Virus record (IMG/VR): IMGVR_UViG_2563366824_000001
Reading direction: 5' to 3' (one strand)
DNA length: 46,473 nt
DNA from: a virus
Lineage: Duplodnaviria > Heunggongvirae > Uroviricota > Caudoviricetes
Position numbers and translations under genes: made by a program. Below the pieces are notes generated by a model. It searched no databases. It was not told where the DNA came from and was given only the letters and a program-made list of their open reading frames with translations. This document shows positions 7,175 through 41,282 of the stretch, piece by piece; within the stretch, counting starts at the first letter, position 1; each line of letters begins with the position of its first letter.

Positions 7175-7849
7175 TTAGGCTTTGATTTTGTATCTTCTTG
7201 GTTTTCCTGAGAAAATCACAGTTCCAATTATAGAGCAATTACCGTTGATCTTAATGTAAGGCTCAGGCCAGTTTGGGTTTAACGCTTTGAGATAACGCTG
7301 TGTCCCATCTTCTATCAACCTTTTGAAGGTGGTTTCACCTGTATCGTGCATCAATGCAATAACGTCGTCACCGTGGCAGGCAGGTACTTCAGGATCGACA
7401 AAAATCATGTCTCCCGGGCGGTACTCATCAATCATTGAATCACCTATCACCCGCAAGATATAAGTCATTTCCCCACAGGGTACAGGGCAGGGATACGTTT
7501 CTGCTGTGCTCAAATCAACCTCAGAATATCCAACTTCTTTCCATGCTCCGGCCTGTACCCATGATATGACAGGGACTAATGTGATTTGTTTATTAGTGAT
7601 TGAAACATCAGGTTTTTTTGTGATGTTCGTTGTCTGGTGTTCTTGATCGAGCCATCCGACAGGCAGGTCGAAACATTTTTCGATGTGTCGTGCCATGCTG
7701 TCACCGATATTTTTAGTAGCACCATCTCCCATAAACCTGCTGGTCTGGGTTGGCTCGCGATCAATCATAGTGGCAAAGGAAGAATTCCCGCCAACACCAT
7801 CTCTCAGTTTTCTGGCGTTAGACCGCCGGATGTCATGGATTGTTTTCAT
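7175..7849 (-). CDS. cI: CI-type prophage repressor (N-terminal HTH, C-terminal LexA-like S24 autopeptidase domain)
   Basis: 224 aa; C-terminal GDSM ... K pattern of S24 peptidases; divergent from a Cro-like gene across a palindromic operator region. Confidence 0.85.
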   Translation of the reverse strand: MKTIHDIRRSNARKLRDGVGGNSSFATMIDREPTQTSRFMGDGATKNIGDSMARHIEKCFDLPVGWLDQEHQTTNITKKPDVSITNKQITLVPVISWVQAGAWKEVGYSEVDLSTAETYPCPVPCGEMTYILRVIGDSMIDEYRPGDMIFVDPEVPACHGDDVIALMHDTGETTFKRLIEDGTQRYLKALNPNWPEPYIKINGNCSIIGTVIFSGKPRRYKIKA

Positions 7850-7864
7850 AACGAAATTAAAACC

Positions 7865-7885
7865 CTTGTACCGTTAAGGTACAAG
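7865..7885. promoter_or_regulatory. Palindromic operator candidate (OR) between cI and cro
   Basis: cttgtacc-gttaa-ggtacaag: perfect 8-bp inverted arms. A second inverted repeat atatgta-N9-tacatat (7914..7936) overlaps the cro SD. Confidence 0.5.
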
Positions 7886-7939
7886 TATCTTGAAGGTTCA
7901 TTTCAATCATGTAATATGTATACCGGAGGTACATATTGT

Positions 7940-8140
7940 ATGAAAGCGTATTGGGACTCTTTAACCAAAGAACAGCAGGGCGAGTTGGCCGGAAAAGTTG
8001 GCTCAACACCTGGCTACTTACGGCTGGTTTTCAATGGCTATAAAAAAGCCAGTTTTGTGCTGGCTAAAAAACTTGAGCAATGCACGTCAGGTGCAATTAC
8101 GAAATCTGACTTAAGACCGGATATCTATCCGAAAGATTAG
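7940..8140 (+). CDS. cro: Cro-like HTH regulator
   Basis: 66 aa; SD ggaggt 9 nt before the ATG; divergent from cI; HTH-like GELAGKVGSTPGYL. Confidence 0.75.
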   Translation: MKAYWDSLTKEQQGELAGKVGSTPGYLRLVFNGYKKASFVLAKKLEQCTSGAITKSDLRPDIYPKD

Positions 8141-8171
8141 CAGAACACTTTCAATTTTTAACCACAGAACG

Positions 8172-8741
8172 ATGAGGCTAATCGTGGGTAAGCATCACTG
8201 GAAAATAGAAAAACAGCCTGAGTGGTACGTGAAAGCTGTCAGAAAAACTATCGCGGCGTTGCCGGGTGGTTACGCTGAAGCGGCTGACTGGCTCGATGTA
8301 ACAGAAAACGCTTTATTCAACCGCCTTCGTGCAGATGGCGATCAGATTTTCCCGCTGGGATGGGCAATGGTTTTACAGCGTGCTGGTGGCACTCATTTCA
8401 TTGCTGATGCTGTGGCGCAGTCTGCAAATGGCGTCTTTGTGTCTCTTCCTGACGTCGAGGATGTGGACAACGCCGATATTAACCAGCGTCTGCTGGAAGT
8501 CATTGAACAGATCGGCAGTTATTCAAAACAGATTCGTTCAGCAATCGAAGACGGTGTAGTGGAACCGCATGAGAAGACAGCAATTAACGACGAGCTGTAT
8601 CTCTCAATTTCGAAGCTGCAGGAGCATGCAGCACTTGTCTACAAAATTTTTTGCATTTCAGAAAGTAATGACGCCCGCGAGTGTGCAGCTCCGGGCGTCG
8701 TGGCGTCGATTGCTTCTGGTTGTGGAGAAACTAACGCATGA
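8172..8741 (+). CDS. Hypothetical protein at the cII position (possible CII/YdaT-like regulator)
   Basis: 189-aa ORF right after cro; family assignment is a guess from position only; alternative GTG start at 8184 has a better SD. Confidence 0.45.
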
Positions 8742-9096
8742 ACAGTTTAACAACACACTACCGTCGCTCGCAACTGATTGCGCTTCCTGTACCGGGTGGA
8801 AAAGCGAAGGTGGAATATTGCTATGCAGTGAATGTACCAGGTGACAGGGAAATTGTAACCCACAGCTTTGCAGAGTGGGCTGTGGGGGATTTCAACCGGC
8901 AGAAGGAGACAGTCCTTTGCGACAAGTTAACCGCTGGTTCAAAGATCACTACGGAGTGCCCGTCAGAGTCATTCGTTGGGAACCGGAAACACAACGGGTT
9001 ATCTACCTCCGCGAAGGCTATGAGCATGAGTGCTTCAGTCCGCTCGAACAGTTTCGTCGTAAATTCAGGGAAATAGAGGTCGGTCATGAGCACTAA
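8738..9096 (+). pseudogene. Two overlapping ORFs (8738..9076 and 8875..9096, frames offset by -1) consistent with a frameshifted small early gene
   Basis: 8738 frame starts with ATGA coupling and is protein-like for about 55 codons, then becomes Ser-rich junk; the 8875 frame is protein-like at its C-terminus ([21 protein letters not shown]) and overlaps the next start. Confidence 0.4.
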
Positions 9097-10027
9097 ATTA
9101 ACCGGCTATGTATGGGATGGTTGCGCAGCGTCAGGCATGAAATTATCCAGCGTGGCAATTATGGCCCGCCTGGCTGATTTCAGTAATGACGAAGGTGTGT
9201 GCTGGCCATCGATTGAAACCATTGCCCGCCAGATTGGCGCGGGGATGAGTACAGTCAGAACGGCTATCGCACGGCTGGAAGCAGAAGGCTGGTTAACGCG
9301 TAAGGCGCGTCGCCAGGGTAACCGCAATGCGTCGAATGTTTATCAGCTTAACGTTGCGAAGCTTCAGGCTGCGGCATTTTCTCAACTGTCAGATTCTGAC
9401 CCGTCAAAATCTGACGCATCAAAATCTGACCCGTCAAAATTTGATGCGTCGAAATCTGGCAAAAAAGCGGGTTTTCACCCGTCAGAATCTGGCGGGGATC
9501 CGTCAGTAAAATCAAAACATGATCCGTCAGATAAAAAACCTTCTCGTCCGGACGCTTCGCAACCGGACACGCAGACGGCTGAACAGGATTTTTTAACTCG
9601 CCATCCTGATGCGGTTGTATTCAGCCCTAAAAAGCGCCAGTGGGGGACGCAGGATGATTTGACCTGCGCACAGTGGCTCTGGAAAAAAATCATCGCCCTG
9701 TACGAGCAGGCTGCCGAATGTGACGGCGAGGTGGTTCGTCCCAAAGAACCGAACTGGACAGCCTGGGCAAACGAAATTCGCCTGATGTGTGTGCAGGATG
9801 GTCGTACTCACAAACAAATCTGCGAGATGTACAGCCGCGTCAGCCGCGATCCGTTCTGGTGCCGTAACGTGCTCAGCCCGTCGAAGCTGCGGGAAAAATG
9901 GGATGAGCTTTCCCTGCGCTTATCGCCGTCCGTAAGCACGTACACCGAAAAACGCGAAGACGCGTACTTCAAAGCCAGTTACGACAACGTGGACTACAGC
10001 CAGATCCCGGCAGGATTCAGGGGGTAA
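9086..10027 (+). CDS. Replication initiation protein (lambda O-like function; N-terminal winged HTH) containing the origin iterons
   Basis: 313 aa; SD gaggt; N-terminal HTH (IETIARQIGAGMSTVRTAIARLEAEGWL); internal 15-bp DNA iterons encode the SDSDPSKSDASKSDPSKFDASKS peptide repeat. Confidence 0.75.
   Translation: MSTKLTGYVWDGCAASGMKLSSVAIMARLADFSNDEGVCWPSIETIARQIGAGMSTVRTAIARLEAEGWLTRKARRQGNRNASNVYQLNVAKLQAAAFSQLSDSDPSKSDASKSDPSKFDASKSGKKAGFHPSESGGDPSVKSKHDPSDKKPSRPDASQPDTQTAEQDFLTRHPDAVVFSPKKRQWGTQDDLTCAQWLWKKIIALYEQAAECDGEVVRPKEPNWTAWANEIRLMCVQDGRTHKQICEMYSRVSRDPFWCRNVLSPSKLREKWDELSLRLSPSVSTYTEKREDAYFKASYDNVDYSQIPAGFRG
9386..9460. repeat. Iteron array (about five 15-bp tandem repeats, consensus CCGTCAAAATCTGAC) followed by an A-rich tract; candidate ori
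   Basis: Seen directly: ctgtcagattctgac / ccgtcaaaatctgac / gcatcaaaatctgac / ccgtcaaaatttgat / gcgtcgaaatctggc, with further copies at 9478..9535. Confidence 0.65.
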
Positions 10028-10029
10028 TC

Positions 10030-10518
10030 ATGAGTCTTTTGAATGAAGTTCAGAAATTCATTGAAGCCCATCCGGGGTGTACTTCCGGAGACATTGCGGA
10101 TGCTTTTGCAGGCTACTCACGGCAGCGCGTTCTGCAGTCAGCAAGCAAGTTACGTCAGAGTGGGCGTGTGGCTCACCGTTGTGAAGGGGATACACGCAGA
10201 CATTTCCCGCGCCTGACTGAGAGAGCGCAGGAGCCGGAACCACAACCAGTTCGTGAAACCAGACCTGCGCGCAATTTCTATGTCGGCACTAACGATCCCC
10301 GGGTGATTTTGTGCCTGACCCGCCAGGCTGAAGAACTGGAGTCAAGGGGCTTATACCGTCGTGCTGCAACCGTGTGGATGGCGGCATTCCGTGAAAGCCA
10401 CTCCCAGCCAGAACGAAACAATTTTCTGACGCGTCGTGAGCGGTGCTTACGGAAAAGCAGCAAGCGCGCTGCATCGGGTGAAGAGTGGTATCTGTCAGGG
10501 AATTACGTGGGGGCTTAA
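10030..10518 (+). CDS. PerC-family-like putative regulator (YfdN-like)
   Basis: 162 aa; C-terminal AEELESRGLYRRAATVWMAAF resembles the PerC motif as I remember it; N-terminal winged-helix-like region. Confidence 0.5.
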   Translation: MSLLNEVQKFIEAHPGCTSGDIADAFAGYSRQRVLQSASKLRQSGRVAHRCEGDTRRHFPRLTERAQEPEPQPVRETRPARNFYVGTNDPRVILCLTRQAEELESRGLYRRAATVWMAAFRESHSQPERNNFLTRRERCLRKSSKRAASGEEWYLSGNYVGA

Positions 10519-11171
10519 TGAGTAATAAATATTGCCAGGCGCTGGTGGAACTGCGGAACAAACCAGCCCATGAACTGAAGGAAGTGGGCGATCAGTGGCG
10601 CACGCCGGACAACATTTTCTGGGGAATTAACACCCTGTTTGGCCCGTTTGTTCTGGATCTGTTCACTGACGGTGATAACGCCAAATGTGCTGCGTATTAC
10701 ACGGCGGAAGACAACGCGCTGGCGCATGACTGGTCAGAACGTCTTGCGGAGCTTAAAGGGGCTGCCTTTGGTAATCCCCCATACAGCCGCGCCAGTCAGC
10801 ATGAGGGGCAATACATCACCGGCATGCGTTACATCATGAAACATGCCAGTGCCATGCGTGATAAGGGTGGGCGCTATGTTTTCCTGATCAAAGCTGCCAC
10901 CAGCGAAGTGTGGTGGCCGGAAGATGCAGACCATATTGCTTTTATTCGCGGGCGTATTGGTTTTGAACTGCCTGCCTGGTTTATCCCGAAGGATGAGAAG
11001 CAGGTGCCGACAGGCGCTTTCTTCGCTGGTGCTATTGCTGTTTTCGACAAGACCTGGAAGGGACCGGCAATCAGCTACATCGGGCGCGATGAACTTGAGG
11101 CATGTGGTGAGGCGTTTTTGGCGCAGGTTCGCCAGCAGGCAGAAAAACTTGTCAGGGAGATGGCGGCATGA
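10518..11171 (+). CDS. Phage DNA N6-adenine methyltransferase (Dam-type)
   Basis: GNPPYS catalytic motif; start ATG overlaps the preceding stop (TAATG); the six-frame ORF extends upstream to 10485. Confidence 0.8.
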   Translation: MSNKYCQALVELRNKPAHELKEVGDQWRTPDNIFWGINTLFGPFVLDLFTDGDNAKCAAYYTAEDNALAHDWSERLAELKGAAFGNPPYSRASQHEGQYITGMRYIMKHASAMRDKGGRYVFLIKAATSEVWWPEDADHIAFIRGRIGFELPAWFIPKDEKQVPTGAFFAGAIAVFDKTWKGPAISYIGRDELEACGEAFLAQVRQQAEKLVREMAA

Positions 11172-11494
11172 CGACGTTAACTCAGTGTCAGCAGCAGGTG
11201 CTGGATATGCTGATTTCTTACCAGCAAGAACGTGGCTTTCCGCCAACCAATCAGGAGGTGGCAACCATGCTGGGATACCGTTCAGTGAATGCAGCGGTGG
11301 AGCATCTTCGCGCACTGGAGAAAAAAGGCGTCATCACGATAAAGCGTGGTGTGGCCCGGGGGATCACGCTTCATACCGCGGTGAAGGACGACGACAGCGA
11401 GGCGGTCGGGATTATCCGCTCACTGCTTGCCGGTGAGGAAAACGCAAGGCTGCGTGCAACTCACTGGTTACATGAGAGAGGCCTGAAAGTATGA
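11168..11494 (+). CDS. LexA DNA-binding-domain-only protein (no S24 peptidase domain)
   Basis: 108 aa; LTQCQQQVLDML ... GFPPTNQEVATMLGYRSVNAAVEHLRALEKKGVITIKRGVARGITL is collinear with the LexA N-terminal winged HTH; no Ser/Lys peptidase domain follows; ATGA coupling. Confidence 0.7.
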   Translation: MTTLTQCQQQVLDMLISYQQERGFPPTNQEVATMLGYRSVNAAVEHLRALEKKGVITIKRGVARGITLHTAVKDDDSEAVGIIRSLLAGEENARLRATHWLHERGLKV

Positions 11495-11881
11495 AGCTGA
11501 TCCTGCCTTTCCCGCCCAGCGTGAACACGTACTGGCGACACCCCAACAAAGGGGCGTTTGCTGGTAAGAGCCTGATAAGCGCGGCGGGGCGAAAATTCCA
11601 GAGCGCGGCGTGCGCAGCAATAGTTGAGCAGTTACGTCGTCTGCCAAAACCAACGTCGGCACCTGCTTCAGTGGAGATCGTGTTGTTTCCTTCCGGATAA
11701 CCGGAGCCGCGATCTGGACAACTATAACAAGGCGCTGTTTGACGCCCTGACCCACGCGGGTGTGTGGGAAGACGACAGTCAGGTGAAAAGAATGCTGGTG
11801 GAGTGGGGACCGGTTATCCCGGAAGGGAAGGTCGAGATCACTATCAGTAAGTACGAGAAAACGGCGGGTGCAGCCGCCTGA
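11491..11881 (+). pseudogene. rusA: rusA (Holliday junction resolvase) split by a frameshift into 11491..11700 and 11624..11881
   Basis: N-terminal part MKLILPFPPSVNTYWRH... in one frame and RDLDNYNKALFDALTHAGVWEDDSQV... in the +1 frame; junction near gtgttgtttccttccggataa (11683..11700). Confidence 0.7.
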
Positions 11882-11900
11882 GCAAAAGGAGAAACGAAGT

Positions 11901-12710
11901 ATGAATAATCTGATGGTCATTGATGGTATTGAAGTTCGTCGTGATGCTTATGGGCGTTACAGCCTGAACGATCTGCATCGCGCAGCAGTAGCATCTGGTG
12001 CAAATGCCAGAACCAAGGAGCCAGGAAAGTTTCTTTCCAGCCAACAAACTGTTGAACTTGTTCATGAATTGACCAACACCCAGAATTTGGGTGTTGACCC
12101 GGTGAGTGTGATTCATGGGGGAAATGAACGGGGAACTTATGTCTGCAAGGAACTGGTGTATGCCTATGCAATGTGGATCAGCCCGTCATTCCATCTGAAG
12201 GTGATCCGTACTTTCGATATGGTAACCAGCGCACCGGAAAAATTATCCGGGCAGGCTGCTGACAAGATGCAGGCTGGAGTGATTCTGCTGGACTTTATGC
12301 GCAGGGAGTTAAACCTGTCTAACTCTTCAGTGCTTGGGGCCTGTCAGAAACTCCAGGAGGCTGTTGGCTTACCGAATCTGGCACCGCGCTATGCCATTGA
12401 TGCTCCTGCTGACGCGCCTGATGGCTCAAGCCGCCCCACGCTGTCACTGAGTGCATTGCTGAAGCAGTATGGTATCCGCCTGACAGCTAATCAGGCATAT
12501 CACCAGATGGTGAAGCTGGGGATCGTCGAGCAGCGCGAACGATACAGCCGTACCGCGATTAACAACATCAAAAAATTCTGGTCACTGACAGCGAAAGGCT
12601 GCATGTTCGGCAAGAACATCACCAGTCCCGCAAATCCGCGCGAGACGCAGCCGCATTTCTTCGAATCCCGATTCCCTGAGCTGTTAAAGCTGCTCGATAC
12701 CGTACATTGA
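11901..12710 (+). CDS. KilA-N domain protein (antirepressor-like)
   Basis: SD aaggag 7 nt before the ATG at 11901; N-terminal MNNLMVIDGIEVRRDAYGRYSLNDLHRAA ... LVYAYAMWISPSFHLKV typical of KilA-N. Confidence 0.7.
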   Translation: MNNLMVIDGIEVRRDAYGRYSLNDLHRAAVASGANARTKEPGKFLSSQQTVELVHELTNTQNLGVDPVSVIHGGNERGTYVCKELVYAYAMWISPSFHLKVIRTFDMVTSAPEKLSGQAADKMQAGVILLDFMRRELNLSNSSVLGACQKLQEAVGLPNLAPRYAIDAPADAPDGSSRPTLSLSALLKQYGIRLTANQAYHQMVKLGIVEQRERYSRTAINNIKKFWSLTAKGCMFGKNITSPANPRETQPHFFESRFPELLKLLDTVH

Positions 12711-12711
12711 G

Positions 12712-13707
12712 GTGACCGTGAGAGCACTACTGACCCCTGAAATTGCCCCGCGTATGGGGATCGTATTGTTCAGACCAGGTTCAGAGCTGATGCCCCTGTT
12801 TATGCAGGGGCGTGTCCTGCTGGAGCCTGAGCCGGAACGTTATTCATCTTTCGCCAGTGGTGCCGTTCCGGCGGCATCACAACCGCTGGCGGATGATCCT
12901 GCCGTTCGGGCCGTGTTCCGCAATGAGGCAGTGATTCGTCGTGCTGGTGGCGTGGAATGTCTTGAAAGCTGGTTACTTCGTGAAAAAGGCTGCCAGTGGC
13001 CTCATTCCGACTGGCACAGCGAGAACATGACAACAATGCGACACGCGCCGGGCGCAATCCGTCTGTGCTGGCACTGCGATAACCAGCTGCGTGATCAGTT
13101 CACGGAACGGCTGGAATCAATGGCAACGGATAACTGTGCCCGCTGGGTGTTGTCTGTTGTGCGTCGGGATCTCGGTTTTGATGATAGTCACGTTGTGACA
13201 ATGCCGGAACTGTGCTGGTGGCTGATTCGTAATGACCTGGCGGATGCCTTACCGGAAAGTGCAGCCCGTAAGGCACTGAGATTACCGAAGCCTGTTGTGC
13301 CGTCTGTCACCCGGGAAAGTGACCTTGTGCCTTCGGTTCCTGCCACCAGCATCATCCAGGATAAGGCGAAAAAGGTGCTGGCGCTGAAAGTGGATCCGGA
13401 GTCGCCGGAGTCTTTTATGTTACGCCCAAAACGTCGCCGCTGGGTTAATGAAAAGTACACGCGCTGGGTTAAGACACAGCCGTGTGCATGTTGTGGAAAG
13501 CCTGCTGATGATCCCCACCACCTGATAGGCCACGGTCAGGGTGGAATGGCTACAAAAGCGCATGACCTCTTTGTGTTGCCTTTGTGCAGAAAGCATCACG
13601 ACGAGCTGCATGCGGATACCGTGGCATTTGAAGAGAAGTATGGTTCCCAGCTGGAGCTGATATTTCGTTTTATCGATCGTGCGCTGGCAATAGGCGTACT
13701 GGCGTAA
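12712..13707 (+). CDS. DUF968-domain protein (YdfU-like, HNH-like Cys/His-rich C-terminus)
   Basis: C-terminal CACCGKP..DPHHL.GHGQGG...HDLFVLPLCRKHHDELH pattern; probable GTG start at 12712 or 12718. Confidence 0.7.
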   Translation: MTVRALLTPEIAPRMGIVLFRPGSELMPLFMQGRVLLEPEPERYSSFASGAVPAASQPLADDPAVRAVFRNEAVIRRAGGVECLESWLLREKGCQWPHSDWHSENMTTMRHAPGAIRLCWHCDNQLRDQFTERLESMATDNCARWVLSVVRRDLGFDDSHVVTMPELCWWLIRNDLADALPESAARKALRLPKPVVPSVTRESDLVPSVPATSIIQDKAKKVLALKVDPESPESFMLRPKRRRWVNEKYTRWVKTQPCACCGKPADDPHHLIGHGQGGMATKAHDLFVLPLCRKHHDELHADTVAFEEKYGSQLELIFRFIDRALAIGVLA

Positions 13708-13720
13708 GTGGAGAACGAGC

Positions 13721-14473
13721 ATGAACCTTGAAGCCTTACCGAAATATTACTCCCCGAAATCTCCAAAATTGAGCGATGACGCACCGGCGACAGGCTCTGG
13801 TGGTTTAACAATTACGGATGTAATGGCTGCGCAGGGGATGGTGCAGTCGAAAGCACCGCTTGGGTTTGCCTTATTCCTGGCAAAAGTTGGTGTTCAGGAT
13901 CCTCAGTTTGCGATTGAAGGTCTGCTCAATTACGCGATGGCACTGGATAACCCGACATTGAACAAATTGAGTGAAGAAACCCGGTTACAGATCATCCCTT
14001 ACCTTGTGAATTTTGCCTTTGCTGATTATTCCAGGTCTGCGGCAAGTAAGGCTCGCTGTGAGTATTGTGCTGGTACTGGATTTCATAATGTATTGCGCGA
14101 AGTGGTGAAACACTCCAGAAGTGGGGAATCTGTTATCAAGGAAGAGTGGGTGAAGGAACTATGTCAGCATTGCCATGGTAAGGGAGAAGTCAGCACAGCG
14201 TGCAGAGGGTGTAAGGGTAAAGGTATTGTCCTGGATGAAAAAAGGACCCGGCTTCATGGCGCGCCTGTTTATAAGATTTGTGGGCGTTGCAATGGAAACC
14301 GGTTTAGTCGTTTACCAACGACACTGGCGCGGTGTCATGTCCAGAAGCTGGTACCAGACCTGACTGATTATCAGTGGTACAAAGGATATGCAGATGTCAT
14401 TGATAAACTGGTTACAAAGTGCTGGCAGGAAGAAGCATATGCTGAGGTGCAATTAAGAAAAGTGACGAGATAA
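13721..14473 (+). CDS. Late-gene antiterminator Q-like protein (QuuQ/YdfT-like, four CxxCxGxG zinc-finger repeats)
   Basis: 250 aa; SD ggaga; CEYCAGTGF, CQHCHGKGE, CRGCKGKGI, CGRCNGNRF repeats; followed by a PR'/tR'-like unit and the lysis genes. Confidence 0.65.
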   Translation: MNLEALPKYYSPKSPKLSDDAPATGSGGLTITDVMAAQGMVQSKAPLGFALFLAKVGVQDPQFAIEGLLNYAMALDNPTLNKLSEETRLQIIPYLVNFAFADYSRSAASKARCEYCAGTGFHNVLREVVKHSRSGESVIKEEWVKELCQHCHGKGEVSTACRGCKGKGIVLDEKRTRLHGAPVYKICGRCNGNRFSRLPTTLARCHVQKLVPDLTDYQWYKGYADVIDKLVTKCWQEEAYAEVQLRKVTR

Positions 14474-14504
14474 ATGATTTTCGCCGAAGATGGCGACGTA
14501 ATGC

Positions 14505-14533
14505 TTGCATTTTTCAAAAAATATGGATAAAAT
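14505..14533 (+). promoter_or_regulatory. Candidate late promoter PR' (-35 TTGCAT, 17-bp spacer, -10 TAAAAT)
   Basis: Seen in sequence immediately downstream of the Q-like gene; the region up to the terminator would carry a qut-like site. Confidence 0.4.
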
Positions 14534-14577
14534 TCTTTCAACGATGGGCTTTATATACCCGACGTTAAGAAAAAGTA

Positions 14578-14606
14578 GAAAACCCGCTGATGAGCGGGTT
14601 TTTGTG
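14578..14606 (+). terminator. Rho-independent terminator (tR'-like), about 65 nt downstream of the candidate PR' start
   Basis: aacccgct-gatg-agcgggtt stem followed by TTTTT. Confidence 0.6.
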
Positions 14607-14888: not shown

Positions 14889-15101
14889 TCATGAAAGGTA
14901 AACATTGGCAGCTGAAGGGCCACGCAGACCATTTATCCGGCAAAATTCCACGCGTAATCCGGTGGTAATTTCTTCTGCATCGCGGAGATTGAGCGCTGAA
15001 ACATGAAGCTGGACATCGATACGACCATCGGATGGGGTGATAAGACCCTTGCCGCTTTTGCCGTCAAAGGTTTTGACAATTCCTGTCATTTTACGGGACA
15101 A
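14889..15101 (-). CDS. Cold-shock protein family member (CspF/CspH-like)
   Basis: 70 aa [27 protein letters not shown] ... [23 protein letters not shown] fold of the CspF/H subgroup. Confidence 0.85.
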
Positions 15102-15401: not shown

Positions 15402-15617
15402 ATGTCAAATAAAATGACTGGTTTAGTAAAATGGTTTAACGCTGATAAAGGTTTTGGCTTTATTTCTCCTGTTGATGGTAGTAAAGATGTGTTTGTGCAT
15501 TTTTCTGCGATTCAGAATGATAATTTTCGAACCTTATTTGAAGGTCAAAAGGTTACCTTCTCTGTAGAGAGTGGTGCTAAAGGTCCTGCAGCAGCAAATG
15601 TCATAATTACTGATTAA
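15402..15617 (+). CDS. cspB: Cold-shock protein CspB-like
   Basis: 71 aa [67 protein letters not shown]; RNP1/RNP2 motifs present. Confidence 0.85.
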
Positions 15618-15980: not shown

Positions 15981-16151
15981 TCAAGCTACAGCTTTAAGAT
16001 TTGTCTGGAATACTTTGTTGCAATGAGGGCAGATCAAAAGGGCACCTTTTTGTACTCTTGAAAAACTGTGTTCTGACTCTTGGGTGCAGTTTGGGCAGGA
16101 ACATTTAACGAGATAATTACGGCGTGATTTTGAGTCTTTACGTTCTGACAT
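15981..16151 (-). CDS. Small zinc-ribbon protein (YnfN-like)
   Basis: 56 aa from MSERKDSKSRRNYLVKCSCPNCTQESEH ... CPHCNK (CxxC ... CxxC); the longer six-frame ORF has an unlikely N-terminal extension. Confidence 0.5.
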   Translation of the reverse strand: MSERKDSKSRRNYLVKCSCPNCTQESEHSFSRVQKGALLICPHCNKVFQTNLKAVA

Positions 16152-16369
16152 AGGCTTTTCCTGTATAAATGGCCGTATACAGTACACTAAATATGAAAAC
16201 ATATCTCGTATTATTATTTAATATATGATTTTCTTTTAAAATAATTACCCACATTTTTAATGTGTCTGTTTTTTAGCGCCGTTGAGAACAACGTTTGCTA
16301 TAAAAACTAACCCATAGACTCCGATCTTTTCAAACATATTGCACCATCTGTGTACATCGGGGTGAGGAT

Positions 16370-17462: not shown

Positions 17463-18490
<1,028 letters not shown>

Positions 18491-18850
18491 ATTAATATTA
18501 AATCGGATTATTTTTAGCGCTGAATGTGAAATTTAAATAAAAAGGACTCTTCCATGAGTCAAAATCCTTGAAATCTTAAGGGTAAGATAAAAGGTCATTA
18601 GACAGAATGACACGTTTTATTAATAAATAAAGCTATTGTTTCATTCGTGTGTTTTTCTTTACAAAAGTAATCCTTGCTATGGTTGGTTAATCATGCGTTA
18701 ATGGTGTTCTGGTTTGTTACAAAATTATCTGAAGCAGTCATTGTTATAATTTTATTATTTGTACCTCTTGAGATCTCCTTGTTGGTTTTTCTCTCTGATA
18801 TTTTTTTTCGGACCATTCTGCCCAAGGGCTAACTTCTTCAAAAGGTAATA

Positions 18851-30540: not shown

Positions 30541-33500
30541 TTTGGGGATTGATGCGGCAGAGTTTAAAAATGAAATCCCCCGTATCAAAAACCTTCTGAA
30601 TGGTGCAGCCAGCGATGCAGAACGGTCTTCTGCCCGTATGCAGCGTTTTATGGAGCGTCAGACTCAGGCCGCCCGGCAGACAACGCAGGCGGCGTCTTCG
30701 GCTGCAACAGCCGCATCCGTCCATGCGCAGACAGTGGAGAAGAACGCACAGGCTCATGAACGCATGGCCCGCGAGGTGGAGAAAACCCGCCAGCGCATGG
30801 AGGCGCTGAGCCAGAAAATGCGCGAGGAACAGGCGCAGGCCATGGCTCTGGCGGAGGCTCAGGATAAAGCGGCTGCTGCGTTTTATCGTCAGATTGACAG
30901 TGTGAAACAGGCCAGTGCGGGGCTGCAGGAATTACAGCGTATTCAGCAGCAGATCCGACAGGCCAGAAACAGTGGCGGGATTGGTCAGCAGGATTATCTG
31001 GCGCTGATTTCTGAGGTTACGGCGAAAACCCGTGTTCTTACACAGGCTGAGGAAGAGGCTACCCGACAGAAAGTGGCGTTTATCCGTCAGCTTAAAGAGC
31101 AGGCAACCCGCCAGAATCTTTCTTCTTCTGAGTTGCTTCGTGCTAAGGCTGCCCAGCTGGGGGTAAGCAGTGCTGCAGAAGTGTATATCCGCAAAATGGA
31201 GCAGGCAGGAAAAGCCACGCATTCGCTGGGTCTGAAAAGTGCAGCGGCCCGTCAGGAGATAGGCGTTCTGATAGGTGAACTGGCCCGCGGAAATTTAGGT
31301 GCGCTGAGGGGATCCGGAATAACGCTGGCTAACCGTGCCGGGTGGATAGACACATTGATGTCACCGAAAGGCATGATGCTTGGCGGGGTTATTGGCGGTA
31401 TTGCCGCGGCTGTCTATGGTCTGGGTAAAGCCTGGTATGACGGTCAGAAGGAGGGGGAAGAATTTAACCGCCAGCTGTCGCTGACGGGGCATTATGCCGG
31501 AGTCACTGCCGGGCAGCTGTGGACGCTCAGTCGTGCTATTTCCGGGAATGGTATCACGCAACATGCTGCAGCCGGTGCGCTGGCTCAGGTGGTGGGGAGT
31601 GGTGCATTTCGTGGAAACGATATCGGTATGGTGGCGAGAGCTGCCGCACAGATGGAGCGATCGGTTGGCCAGTCGATCAGCGATACCATAAATCAGTTTA
31701 AGCGGCTGAAGGATGATCCTGTAAATGCCGCGAAGGCTCTGGACAATGAGCTGCATTTTCTTACTGCCACTCAGCTTGAGCAGATACGTGTCCTTGGGGA
31801 TCAGGGACGGTCCAGTGATGCTGCACGGATAGCCATGTCTGCACTGGCAGAGGAAACCGGTCGGCGTACTGCGGATATTGATAATAACCTCAATGCGCTT
31901 GGTAGTACGCTGAAGTATCTGTCTGATTTGTGGAGTCGTTTCTGGGATGCGGCCATGAATATTGGTCGTGAAGACTCGCTGGATGAACAAATTGCCGCTT
32001 TACAGGAGAAAGTGTCGCGGGCGAAAAGACTCCCCTGGACGGCATCATCTTCTCAGGTTGAATACGATCAGCAGCGTCTTAACGATCTTCAGGAGAAAAA
32101 ACGCCAGAAGGATTTGCAGGATGCAAAAGAGCAGGCAGAGCGGAATTATCAGGAGCAACAGAAACGCCGTAATGCTGAAAATGCTGCACTGAACCGGATG
32201 AATGAAACTGAAGCAGCACGGCATCAGCGTGAAATTGCGCGTATTAATGCCATGCAGTACGCCGATCAGGCTGTCAGGGATGCGGCGATACAACGTGAAA
32301 ATGAACGTTACGAGAAAGCCCTGGCATCCGGTAAGAAAAAAACACGCGAAACCCGTAATGATGAGGCCACCCGGTTATTGCTGCAGTACAGTCAGCAACA
32401 GGCACAGGTGGAAGGGCAGATTGCTGCTGCAAGACAGTCAGCAGGCATTGCCACTGACAGGATGACAGAAGCGCATAAACAGCTTCTGGCTCTGCAGCAG
32501 CGCATCAGCGACCTGGACGGGAAAAAACTGACGGCAGATGAAAAGAGTGTGCTTGCCCGTAAAGATGAACTGATTCAGGCATTGACGCTGCTGGATGTAA
32601 AACAGCAGGAGCTTCAGAAACAGACGGCACTCAACGAGCTGAAGAAAAAAACAATTCAGCTGACCAGTCAACTGGCTGAAGAAGAGCGCGCTCAGCGTCA
32701 GCAACATGACCTGGATATCGCCACGGTGGGTATGGGTGATCAGCAGCGGCAGCGATATCAGGTACAACTGAGTCTTCGCCAGAAATACCAGCAACAGCTG
32801 GAGCAGTTGAGGCGGGATAGCGAGCAGAAAGGGACATATAACACGGATGACTACAGAAAGGCCGAGCAGGCGCTGACGGAGAGCCTGAACCGACAACTGA
32901 ATGAGAATCGCCGTTACTGGCAACAGCTTGAAATTGCTCAGGGTGACTGGAAAAACGGAGTCCTGCGTGCACTCCAGAATGTCACTGAGAATGCGGATAA
33001 CACAGCCGGGACAGTGGAACAGTTGTTCACGTCTGCGTTCAGTAGCATGAGTGACTGGCTGGCGACATTCTGTACTACAGGCAAACTCAATTTCAAATCC
33101 TTCACCTCTTCTGTGCTGTCAGATATGTCCAGAATCATGGCTCAGATAGCTTTAATGAAAGCGGTAAAAGGCATTGCTTCCGCGCTGCCTTTTGATTTTG
33201 TAGCTAATGCTGATGGCGGTGTTTATCAGTCGGCTGATTTGAGTCGCTACAGTGGCACGGTGGTTAACCGTCCGACGTTTTTTGCTTTTGCAAAAGGCGC
33301 GGGTGTGATGGGGGAAGCTGGGCCTGAAGCCATTCTGCCACTGCGTCGTGGTGCTGACGGTAAGCTGGGGGTTGTGGCGGATATTGGTGGTTCAGGTATG
33401 GCGATGTTTGCCCCGCAGTACAACATCGAGATCAATAACGATGGCACGAACGGGCAGATAGGTCCGGCTGCCCTGAAGGTGGTTTATGACCTTGGGAAAA

Positions 33501-33906: not shown

Positions 33907-34605
33907 ATGCAGGATATTCCACAGGAAACACATCATGAGACGACACGCCTTACTCAGTCAGCCCAGGTGGTGCTCTGGGAAATCGATCTGACAGAGGTCG
34001 GTGGTGAACGTTATTTTTTCTGTAATGAGCAGAACGAAAAAGGTGAGCCGGTCACCTGGCAGGGGCGGCAGTATCAGGTATACCCTATTCAGGGGACGGG
34101 ATTTGAACTGAACGGTAAGGGTAGTGCTGCCCGTCCGACACTGACGGTCTCTAACCTGCACGGCATGGTCACCGGGATGGTGGAAGACCTGCAGAGTCTG
34201 GTCGGCGGAACGGTGGTCAGGCGTAAGGTTTACGCCCGTTTTCTGGATGCGGTGAACTTCGTCAACGGAAACAGCGACGCCGATCCGGAGCAGGAGGTGA
34301 TCAGCCGCTGGCGCATCGAGCAGTGCAGCGAACTGAGTGCGGTCAGTGCCTCCTTTGTGCTCTCCACACCGACGGAAACGGATGGTGCTGTTTTTCCGGG
34401 GCGCATCATGCTGGCCAACACCTGCACCTGGACCTATCGCGGTGATGAGTGCGGTTATCATGGTCCGGCTGTCGCGGATGAATATGACCAGCCGACGTCC
34501 GATATCACGAAGGATAAATGCAGCAAATGCCTGAGCGGCTGTAAGTTTCGCAATAACGTCGGCAACTTTGGCGGCTTCCTTTCCATTAACAAACTTTCGC
34601 AGTAA
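33907..34605 (+). CDS. L: Minor tail protein L
   Basis: 232 aa; nearly residue-for-residue match to lambda L as I remember it (VVLWEIDLTEVGGERYFFCNEQNEKGEPVTWQGRQYQ ...). Confidence 0.9.
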   Translation: MQDIPQETHHETTRLTQSAQVVLWEIDLTEVGGERYFFCNEQNEKGEPVTWQGRQYQVYPIQGTGFELNGKGSAARPTLTVSNLHGMVTGMVEDLQSLVGGTVVRRKVYARFLDAVNFVNGNSDADPEQEVISRWRIEQCSELSAVSASFVLSTPTETDGAVFPGRIMLANTCTWTYRGDECGYHGPAVADEYDQPTSDITKDKCSKCLSGCKFRNNVGNFGGFLSINKLSQ

Positions 34606-40682: not shown

Positions 40683-41282
40683 ATGCGTAAATTATGTGCT
40701 GTTATTCTGTCCGCAGTAGTCTGGCTGGTTGCCGCTGGTACGCCAGCGAGCGCAGCAGAGCATCAGTCCACACTAAGCGCCGGGTATCTTCAGACCCATA
40801 CTGATATGCCAGGCAGTGATGACCTGAAGGGCATTAACGTGAAATACCGTTATGAATTTACGGACACGCTGGGGCTGGTGACGTCATTCAGTTATGCCAA
40901 TGCCAAAGATGAGCAAAGAACGCATTACAGCGATACCCGCTGGCATGAAGATTCAGTGCGTAACCGCTGGTTCAGCATGATGGCGGGGCCATCTGTACGC
41001 GTGAATGAATGGTTCAGTGCTTATGCGATGGCAGGTGTGGCTTACAGCCGTGTTTCGACGTTCTCCGGGGATTATCTCCGCGTAACTGACAACAAGGGGA
41101 AAACGCACGATGTGCTGACCGGAAGTGATGACGATCGCCACAGCAACACGTCTCTGGCGTGGGGAGCTGGCGTGCAGTTTAACCCGACCGAATCCGTGGC
41201 CATTGATATTGCTTATGAAGGCTCCGGCAGTGGCGACTGGCGCACTGACGGTTTCATCGTGGGTGTCGGTTATAAGTTCTGA
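40683..41282 (+). CDS. lom: Lom/Ail/PagC-family outer-membrane beta-barrel protein
   Basis: 199 aa with signal peptide and beta-barrel pattern ending ...GFIVGVGYKF; located after J as in lambda. Confidence 0.85.
   Translation: MRKLCAVILSAVVWLVAAGTPASAAEHQSTLSAGYLQTHTDMPGSDDLKGINVKYRYEFTDTLGLVTSFSYANAKDEQRTHYSDTRWHEDSVRNRWFSMMAGPSVRVNEWFSAYAMAGVAYSRVSTFSGDYLRVTDNKGKTHDVLTGSDDDRHSNTSLAWGAGVQFNPTESVAIDIAYEGSGSGDWRTDGFIVGVGYKF

Follow-up and report, generated by a model that had tools for sequence, protein, structure and literature searches.

In the crystal structure of LexA bound to DNA, residues S39, N41, A42 and E45 provide the main direct readout of CTGT (reviewed in PMC11442139), and earlier NMR-based work added E44 to the contact residues (PMC3091678, PMC13416735). 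The rigid N8 spacing of LexA has been attributed to its wing (PMC8565304). A truncated LexA homologue, gp6, has been characterised in GIL01, a tectivirus of the Gram-positive Bacillus; its DNA-binding region aligns with that of the host LexA at 44% identity, and the protein binds the palindrome GaCACAnnTGTGaC and activates transcription from the late promoter P3 (PMC6182141). This palindrome is not an SOS site and is recognised through K38, and an extra C-terminal module has not been reported for gp6. DinI proteins, which modulate the RecA co-protease, are small, phage-borne and SOS-linked; they have an unrelated fold and target RecA filaments instead of DNA operators. The stabilised N-terminal fragment of LexA, LexA(1-84), and the LexA(Ind-) mutants, that is, LexA heads or uncleavable LexA, keep SOS promoters repressed; these are host-derived laboratory or transient species.

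Here we describe a phage gene, referred to below as mini-LexA, and compare it with these systems. Throughout, the window is the whole stretch of DNA that was analysed, 46,473 nucleotides of a Caudoviricetes virus (IMG/VR record IMGVR_UViG_2563366824_000001). The closest characterised system to mini-LexA is GIL01 gp6. Both are early phage proteins that consist essentially of a LexA head without the cleavage domain, and both are about 44–51% identical to the host LexA head. In contrast to gp6, whose host belongs to a different phylum, mini-LexA occurs in lambdoid phages of enterobacteria, has retained the readout residues of the SOS type and carries a conserved tail of 39 residues. Mini-LexA shares with the N-terminal domain of E. 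coli LexA (1lea, 3jso) the same winged helix-turn-helix fold and a similar wing. However, it lacks the S24 peptidase/dimerisation domain, the catalytic Ser and Lys and the conserved Ala-Gly site; E44 is replaced by Val and R28 by Asn, the protein ends in a new two-helix tail, and it is encoded by a phage, in an early lytic operon. Unlike LexA(1-84) and LexA(Ind-), it represents a stable gene family that evolved separately and has a tail of its own. The likeness to DinI is a functional analogy only; in a sister clade, described below, the two share an SOS-box operon. In the literature searched, no experimental work on the enterobacterial mini-LexA family was found.

The gene and its parts were delimited as follows:

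11168..11494, plus strand: mini-LexA coding sequence (open reading frame list; PF01726, E = 2.6e-19; PHROG 362, E = 1.7e-59)
11168..11374, plus strand: residues 1–69, LexA-type winged helix-turn-helix with helices 6–22, 28–35 and 40–52 and a beta wing at 56–58 and 66–68
11282..11323, plus strand: residues 39–52, the start of the recognition helix and the helix itself, SVNAAVEHLRALEK (alignments; contact residues according to PMC11442139 and PMC3091678)
11375..11491, plus strand: residues 70–108, family-specific tail with a short low-confidence linker followed by amphipathic helices 74–87 and 93–103

The open reading frame starts with ATG and encodes 108 amino acids followed by a stop codon. 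Residues 1–65 aligned with the entire Pfam LexA_DNA_bind model (positions 1–65 of 65; 69.2 bits against a cutoff of 23.7), and no Pfam match to the S24 peptidase (PF00717) was obtained for the protein. The best sequence match in the PDB was 1lea, the DNA-binding domain of E. coli LexA (E = 6.6e-16), and full-length LexA was a further top match (E about 1e-15). In an ungapped comparison with residues 1–69 of E. coli LexA, 35 of the 69 positions were identical (50.7%). The AlphaFold2 model, with a mean pLDDT of 75.8, comprised three helices, a beta wing and, after these, the two tail helices, and it matched 1lea and 3jso structurally. These results agree with the initial annotation, which described a whole LexA winged helix-turn-helix without the autopeptidase domain and a protein that RecA could not cause to be cleaved: as there is no S24 domain, mini-LexA has no means of RecA-stimulated self-cleavage.

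The LexA equivalog model of NCBIfam (TIGR00498) was matched at positions 1–91 of 203 only, and the score of 70.5 bits was below the cutoff of 110.95. Consequently, the RefSeq product name ‘LexA repressor’ is an over-annotation and misleading. Judged by its sequence, mini-LexA is not a LexA repressor, having neither the S24 domain nor the equivalog score nor a conserved cleavage site; it belongs to PHROG 362 (‘transcriptional repressor’, 106 positions), a group of stand-alone LexA_DNA_bind phage proteins, and its residues 1–108 matched profile positions 1–106 of 106. Mini-LexA is very probably a DNA-binding, non-cleavable regulator.

The gene might alternatively be a non-functional remnant of a full-length LexA- or CI-like repressor, shortened by a frameshift or deletion. 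The RefSeq label would fit such an origin, as would the frameshifted rusA gene adjoining it in the same prophage and a HMMER alignment that reaches LexA residue 86 and sets A88-G89 of mini-LexA opposite the LexA cleavage site A84-G85. However, rusA starts at the mini-LexA stop codon, and no S24 remnant was found downstream in any frame. The PHROG 362 profile is matched from end to end. A profile search of 1.84 billion representatives returned full-length relatives at 38–49% identity that retain both length and tail motif; since homologues down to 38% identity keep the length of the open reading frame and its motifs, the frame is far beyond chance. Close relatives have 104–108 amino acids. The gene is carried by 2233 of the 5426 complete E. 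coli genomes (about 40–41%), at 90–100% identity and in up to four copies per genome, and the Ala-Gly pair varies among family members. The remnant reading is refuted as far as sequence analysis allows, its remaining probability being very small, and the frameshifted LexA-like remnant considered in the initial annotation can be set aside.

The conserved C-terminal two-helix module, residues about 74–103, was overlooked in the initial annotation. In alignments, its pattern LLRxLxAxxxxARxRAxxxL is kept in the full-length relatives at 38–49% identity, and no homologue of the tail was found in the PDB or Pfam. On the basis of the model, the tail may be a dimerisation or partner-binding module. The pLDDT of its helices was about 82–84; the pTM of the model, 0.49, and the lack of a structural analogue of the tail count against giving dimerisation much weight. 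The region around A88-G89 was predicted to be helical. The tail was also considered as a mimic of the LexA cleavage site, which was ruled out, as the Ala-Gly pair varies across the family (variants include AN, VG, ER, EG, NG, DD, DE and CN).

Compared with LexA, mini-LexA retains S39, N41, A42, A43, E45, H46, R64 and G65 and has Val in place of E44. Its wing, GVITIKRGVARGITL, is similar to that of LexA, GVIEIVSGASRGIRL. The SxNA part of the helix is essentially invariant in the family as a whole, and V, A or T, but never Glu, is found at position 44. By clade, positions 44–46 read VEH, AEH, TDM or ALH; E45 is thus replaced by Asp in the P0122 clade and by Leu in the L069 clade. Full-length LexA-like paralogues altered at positions 44/45 were also found. 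The correspondence with LexA contact residues, which the initial annotation proposed to verify by alignment, therefore held for S39, N41, A42 and E45 and broke down at E44, replaced throughout the family (by Val in the window). The retained residues make a CTGT specificity of the window allele plausible, though not assured, and in some clades the specificity is probably different.

The differences between clades at positions 44–46 would be expected if specificity co-evolves with phage sites, and the loss of E44 fits the same idea, namely that mini-LexA is a phage-specific transcription factor of the gp6 type, a captured LexA head that acts on a non-SOS phage operator and times a phage promoter. 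GIL01 gp6 provides an experimentally established precedent (PMC6182141). Against this, none of the four direct-readout residues of LexA has been lost from the window allele. Further evidence on this reading comes from the genomic setting and from the search for operators.

The window is a lambdoid prophage with an integrase, an S24-type CI, divergent operators and a tightly packed rightward operon. The features relevant to mini-LexA are:

7175..7849, minus strand: CI-type repressor with an S24 peptidase domain (PF00717, E = 1.5e-26)
7940..14473, plus strand: rightward early operon with cro-like, cII-like, O-like, PerC/YfdN, Dam, mini-LexA, rusA, KilA-N, DUF968/HNH and Q genes (Pfam assignments)
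10518..11171, plus strand: Dam-type N6-adenine methyltransferase, 5' of mini-LexA (PF05869, E = 1.1e-45)
11168-11171, plus strand: ATGA overlap of the mini-LexA start and the Dam stop (gcATGAcg, read directly from the sequence)
11491-11494, plus strand: ATGA overlap of the rusA start and the mini-LexA stop (gtATGAag, read directly from the sequence)
11491..11881, plus strand: rusA, disrupted by a 1-nt insertion near 11691 (split open reading frames 11491..11700 and 11624..11881)

Beside the CI gene, the divergent operator palindromes occupy positions 7865-7885 and 7913-7937. A promoter scan of the plus strand from 7800 to 14600 revealed no internal promoter-like site. Because promoter-like sites were not found between the early promoter region and Q, mini-LexA would be expressed after CI inactivation, and the S24-type CI would act as the RecA-sensitive switch through which the rightward early operon, mini-LexA included, is released. 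A PADLOC search for defence systems returned nothing meaningful. In the Dam reading frame that starts with GTG, the first residue covered by the PADLOC MTase_II match is residue 12, and on this basis, together with the SfV annotation, the true start of Dam is likely the ATG at 10518, which overlaps the PerC/YfdN stop.

The translational coupling of mini-LexA to the Dam methyltransferase noted initially is real here as an overlap of stop and start codons, but it is not conserved: the upstream gene is PerC in E. coli ST540 and SfIV and a replication-region protein in mEp390, with no dam in between. As the upstream neighbour varies, the coupling to Dam is incidental. On the other side, rusA or DUF968 is a more constant neighbour than the upstream gene, and the ATGA junction between mini-LexA and rusA is also present in mEp460, SfV and mEp390. 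The break in rusA was recognised from a RusA Pfam match located on the second half and from alignment with the intact rusA of mEp460; RefSeq likewise marks the allele as frameshifted.

Mini-LexA was detected in 61 phage records, including SfV (orf42), SfII, SfIV, cdtI, mEp460 and Stx2a, Stx2c and Stx2k phages, and divergent homologues were located at the equivalent place in mEp390, Klebsiella phages and 90 IMG/VR loci. In every case the gene lies in the nin-like, delayed-early part of a lambdoid phage, with RusA and/or DUF968 and Q downstream of it. Mini-LexA is a real, conserved phage gene of the lambdoid delayed-early region.

The invariance of this synteny across 38–50% identity, with mini-LexA after the replication genes and directly 5' of RusA and/or DUF968-HNH, could indicate a DNA-binding accessory of the phage replication/recombination module (RusA, DUF968/HNH, O-like) that does not act as a transcription factor, and translational coupling to rusA points the same way. 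However, the shared nin-region backbone explains the synteny equally well, and the partner varies, RusA being absent in the P0131 sister clade and frameshifted in the window. Furthermore, a protein that is 50% identical to LexA and has retained its base-reading residues would be expected to bind operators in a sequence-specific manner. We regard an accessory function as improbable.

Operators were sought in the window with exact patterns and with a 20-bp SOS-box position-specific scoring matrix (PSSM) derived from about 21 boxes of E. coli. No exact CTGT-N8-ACAG was present, the best matrix score of 11.1 bits was inside the range of shuffled sequences, and matches to TACTGT-N8-ACAGTA with 2 mismatches were at chance level. 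Other spacings of CTGT and ACAG were not enriched. The LexA-box-like motifs that had been suggested as a check on the prophage were thus not recovered there by pattern, PSSM or relaxed consensus. Consequently, the target of the window copy would lie outside the prophage, on the host chromosome or on another element, or be a single unrecognised site.

One 7+7 inverted repeat, CTGTATA-N8-TATACAG, was found at 16161-16182. It was considered as a wider-spaced operator of the family and rejected: the module occurs in only 6 phage records, mini-LexA is unlisted for 3 of the 5 distinct phages, and the N14 spacing of this repeat is not enriched across 94 related loci.

The repeated palindromes in the window were CI operators, terminators and ori-type repeats only, which leaves the CI operators alone as repeated or conserved operator palindromes, and the gp6-type palindrome was absent even when 1 mismatch was allowed. 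Both results speak against a gp6-type factor, as does the fact that the late genes of lambdoid phages are already under Q, which is encoded in the same operon. Despite its precedent, this explanation, the main rival of the one favoured below, is rather unlikely.

Among the 94 related loci, CTGT-N8-ACAG occurred 52 times, in 37 loci, versus about 9 occurrences expected. Of the other spacings, N20 alone rose above expectation and was traced to one conserved dam coding sequence. In the P0131 sister clade, 41–44% identical to the window protein, a same-strand upstream SOS box was present in 28 of 28 loci, with scores from 17.6 to 30.7 bits. At least 8 distinct box sequences occur in this clade, with both arms, CTGT and ACAG, intact in all of them. 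In both P0131 loci examined (L060, L072), a terminator precedes the box, which in L060 abuts a promoter-like −10 element. The box heads an operon of dinI (usually present), orf101, mini-LexA, orf67 and DUF968, the dinI homologue being identified by PF06183 (E = 8e-22); in loci without dinI, the box lies directly before orf101 and mini-LexA. Klebsiella phage ST846-OXA48phi9.1 has the same gene order, with dinI first, and a Q-type gene follows DUF968 in this phage as well as in L062 and L072. A reading of orf101 as a degenerate S24 domain was rejected, as it had no Pfam match.

SOS boxes were also found in phages of the window clade. SfV has one, within codons 4–10 of a late DNA methylase gene, and mEp460 has four, including a tandem pair by a dinI-like gene. 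Mini-LexA and the late methylase that bears the SOS box occur together in 28 of 32 records; this co-occurrence was rejected as independent evidence, since a single phage backbone carries both modules at a distance of about 4 kb from each other.

The SOS-box dinI operons of the sister clade constitute the strongest link to the SOS response and had been overlooked in the initial annotation. In some lineages, the mini-LexA family is wired into the SOS circuit. However, control by host LexA alone suffices to account for the SOS boxes of the relatives, which is a point against the mechanism proposed below: the boxes establish SOS-linked expression, whereas binding of mini-LexA to them would be a further step.

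Tentatively, and with somewhat less than even confidence, we favour the explanation that mini-LexA is a RecA-insensitive binder of SOS-type operators that would re-impose repression on LexA-controlled promoters during lytic growth. It draws on the architecture and the homology to the LexA head with four identical direct-readout residues, on a wing similar to the one credited with the fixed spacing of LexA, on the stop/start overlaps with both neighbours in an operon where no internal promoter-like site was found, on the excess of CTGT-N8-ACAG among the 94 related loci, and on the SOS boxes in the P0131 operons, SfV and mEp460. Conversely, the window has no SOS box, E44 is never kept and E45 is changed in some clades, so that specificity may have drifted, as in GIL01 gp6. 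For the separate parts of the proposal, an SOS-box-type specificity has nearly even chances, and an SOS-damping role is possible but doubtful.

Under the favoured mechanism, cleavage of the S24-type CI of the prophage would lead to transcription of mini-LexA from the early rightward promoter. The protein could then pair by means of its tail or, in the manner of LexA heads, by contacts between wings on the DNA, and would occupy operators of the CTGT-N8-ACAG type whatever the activity of RecA. Repression of LexA-controlled promoters would in this way be restored at a time when the host repressor is scarce. The genes affected could be host SOS genes or LexA-controlled genes on co-resident elements; in relatives, SOS-box promoters of the phage itself are further candidates. 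Such an action would complement that of phage DinI homologues, which damp RecA. The repression maintained by the LexA N-terminal fragment and by LexA(Ind-) makes this mechanism plausible.

The initial annotation had also suggested a decoy. In such a role, mini-LexA would be an SOS antagonist that competes at SOS boxes without repressing, pairs with LexA heads on DNA or titrates a LexA partner, leaving SOS genes derepressed or uncoupled. Homology to the LexA head is all that speaks for it apart from that suggestion. As the SOS boxes of LexA operators overlap with promoters, repression should result whichever head is bound there. In LexA, dimerisation and contact with RecA involve the C-terminal domain (compare entries 8trg and 3jso), which is missing from mini-LexA, and the association with dinI, an SOS damper, points in the opposite direction. 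The decoy role is unsupported and highly improbable.

A more far-reaching version of the favoured explanation is a RecA-proof ‘SOS off-switch’, in which tail-dimerised mini-LexA would bind canonical SOS boxes after the destruction of host LexA and re-silence the SOS regulon during prophage induction. This version is unlikely. If it were true, SOS-dependent mutagenesis, the expression of toxins and colicins and the induction of competing LexA-controlled prophages would be modulated, and in the sister clades mini-LexA and DinI would jointly make up a negative-feedback loop induced by SOS. If the specificity has instead drifted to a phage-specific site, mini-LexA would be a second, independent capture of a LexA head by a phage, after GIL01 gp6.

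Mini-LexA is widespread and, through Stx phages, medically adjacent; for the functional steps past its architecture, we infer from the comparisons above. Mutagenesis, persistence, prophage induction and the release of Shiga toxin are all under the control of the SOS response. With an uncleavable LexA look-alike supplied by induced prophages, this circuit would gain a brake controlled by the phage.

In the sister clade of mini-LexA loci (the P0131 clade; L060-L086 and L093), an SOS box heads a terminator-insulated operon that contains the mini-LexA gene, as in two examples:

L072, 3209-4327, SOS-box-headed operon
L060, 3507-4408, SOS-box-headed operon

The gene order is a dinI homologue, orf101 (phrog_1813), mini-LexA, orf67 (phrog_1212) and DUF968, followed at some loci by a Q-type gene. 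The sister-clade mini-LexA carries an N-terminal extension and is always flanked by orf101 and orf67.

SOS-box matches were also found inside coding sequences. The sequence TACTGTAAAAATAAACAGTG, a strong match (22.6 bits), falls within a DNA methyltransferase gene (codons 4-10) located between Q and the lysis genes, and TACTGTTTTTACATACAGTA (26 bits) lies in the 5' portion of the prophage repressor gene of mEp460:

SfV (L095), 34170-34189, TACTGTAAAAATAAACAGTG match
mEp460 (L096), 41021-41040, TACTGTAAAAATAAACAGTG match
L001, a further compared locus, 18651-18670, TACTGTAAAAATAAACAGTG match
mEp460 (L096), 31970-31989, SOS box TACTGTTTTTACATACAGTA
mEp460 (L096), 31506-32153, minus strand, prophage repressor gene

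Mini-LexA is also present in 28 of the 32 phage records having this methyltransferase module, a co-occurrence that is not independent evidence, as the two lie about 4 kb apart on one phage backbone. The TACTGTAAAAATAAACAGTG match may either function as a LexA site or simply result from the codons that the gene uses there.

The window contains one further LexA-like repeat:

16161-16182, perfect 7+7 inverted repeat CTGTATA-N8-TATACAG, ahead of a minus-strand ORF with its ATG at 16151

It consists of two LexA-type half-sites with a spacing 6 bp too wide, and is flanked by an AT-rich promoter-like stretch and the RBS of a 56-aa four-Cys zinc-ribbon ORF. This repeat and zinc-ribbon module occurred in only six phage records and showed no link to mini-LexA.

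Downstream of mini-LexA, a single inserted nucleotide near 11691 breaks the window rusA (11491-11881) into two ORFs; it is an extra T within TTTCCTTCCGG relative to the intact rusA of mEp460. An identical allele in E. coli ST540 is annotated as frameshifted by RefSeq.

Occasional mini-LexA fusions were observed: P0207 (224 aa), in which an mEp390-type mini-LexA runs on into an unrelated 120-aa C-terminal region, and the L043 locus, where the mini-LexA reading frame continues into rusA. Each is probably a variant produced by frameshift or assembly. Six proteins from public metagenomes and genomes (P0126, P0128, P0135, P0138, P0142 and P0160) carry two tandem LexA DNA-binding domains without an S24 domain and so resemble a LexA-head 'dimer' built as a single chain.

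Other window features include two CspA-type genes between Q and the lysis genes, judged by eye from sequence, and a lysozyme-like gene that starts only at 17463:

14889-15101, minus strand, cold-shock-protein-like gene
15402-15617, plus strand, cold-shock-protein-like gene
9086-10027, O-like gene

Within the O-like gene, repeated DPSKSDASKSD-type peptide and DNA repeats (9327-9515) and a palindrome, GTCAGATTCTGAC...GTCAAAATCTGAC, at 9388 look like origin iterons inside the replication gene, an arrangement also found in lambda O.
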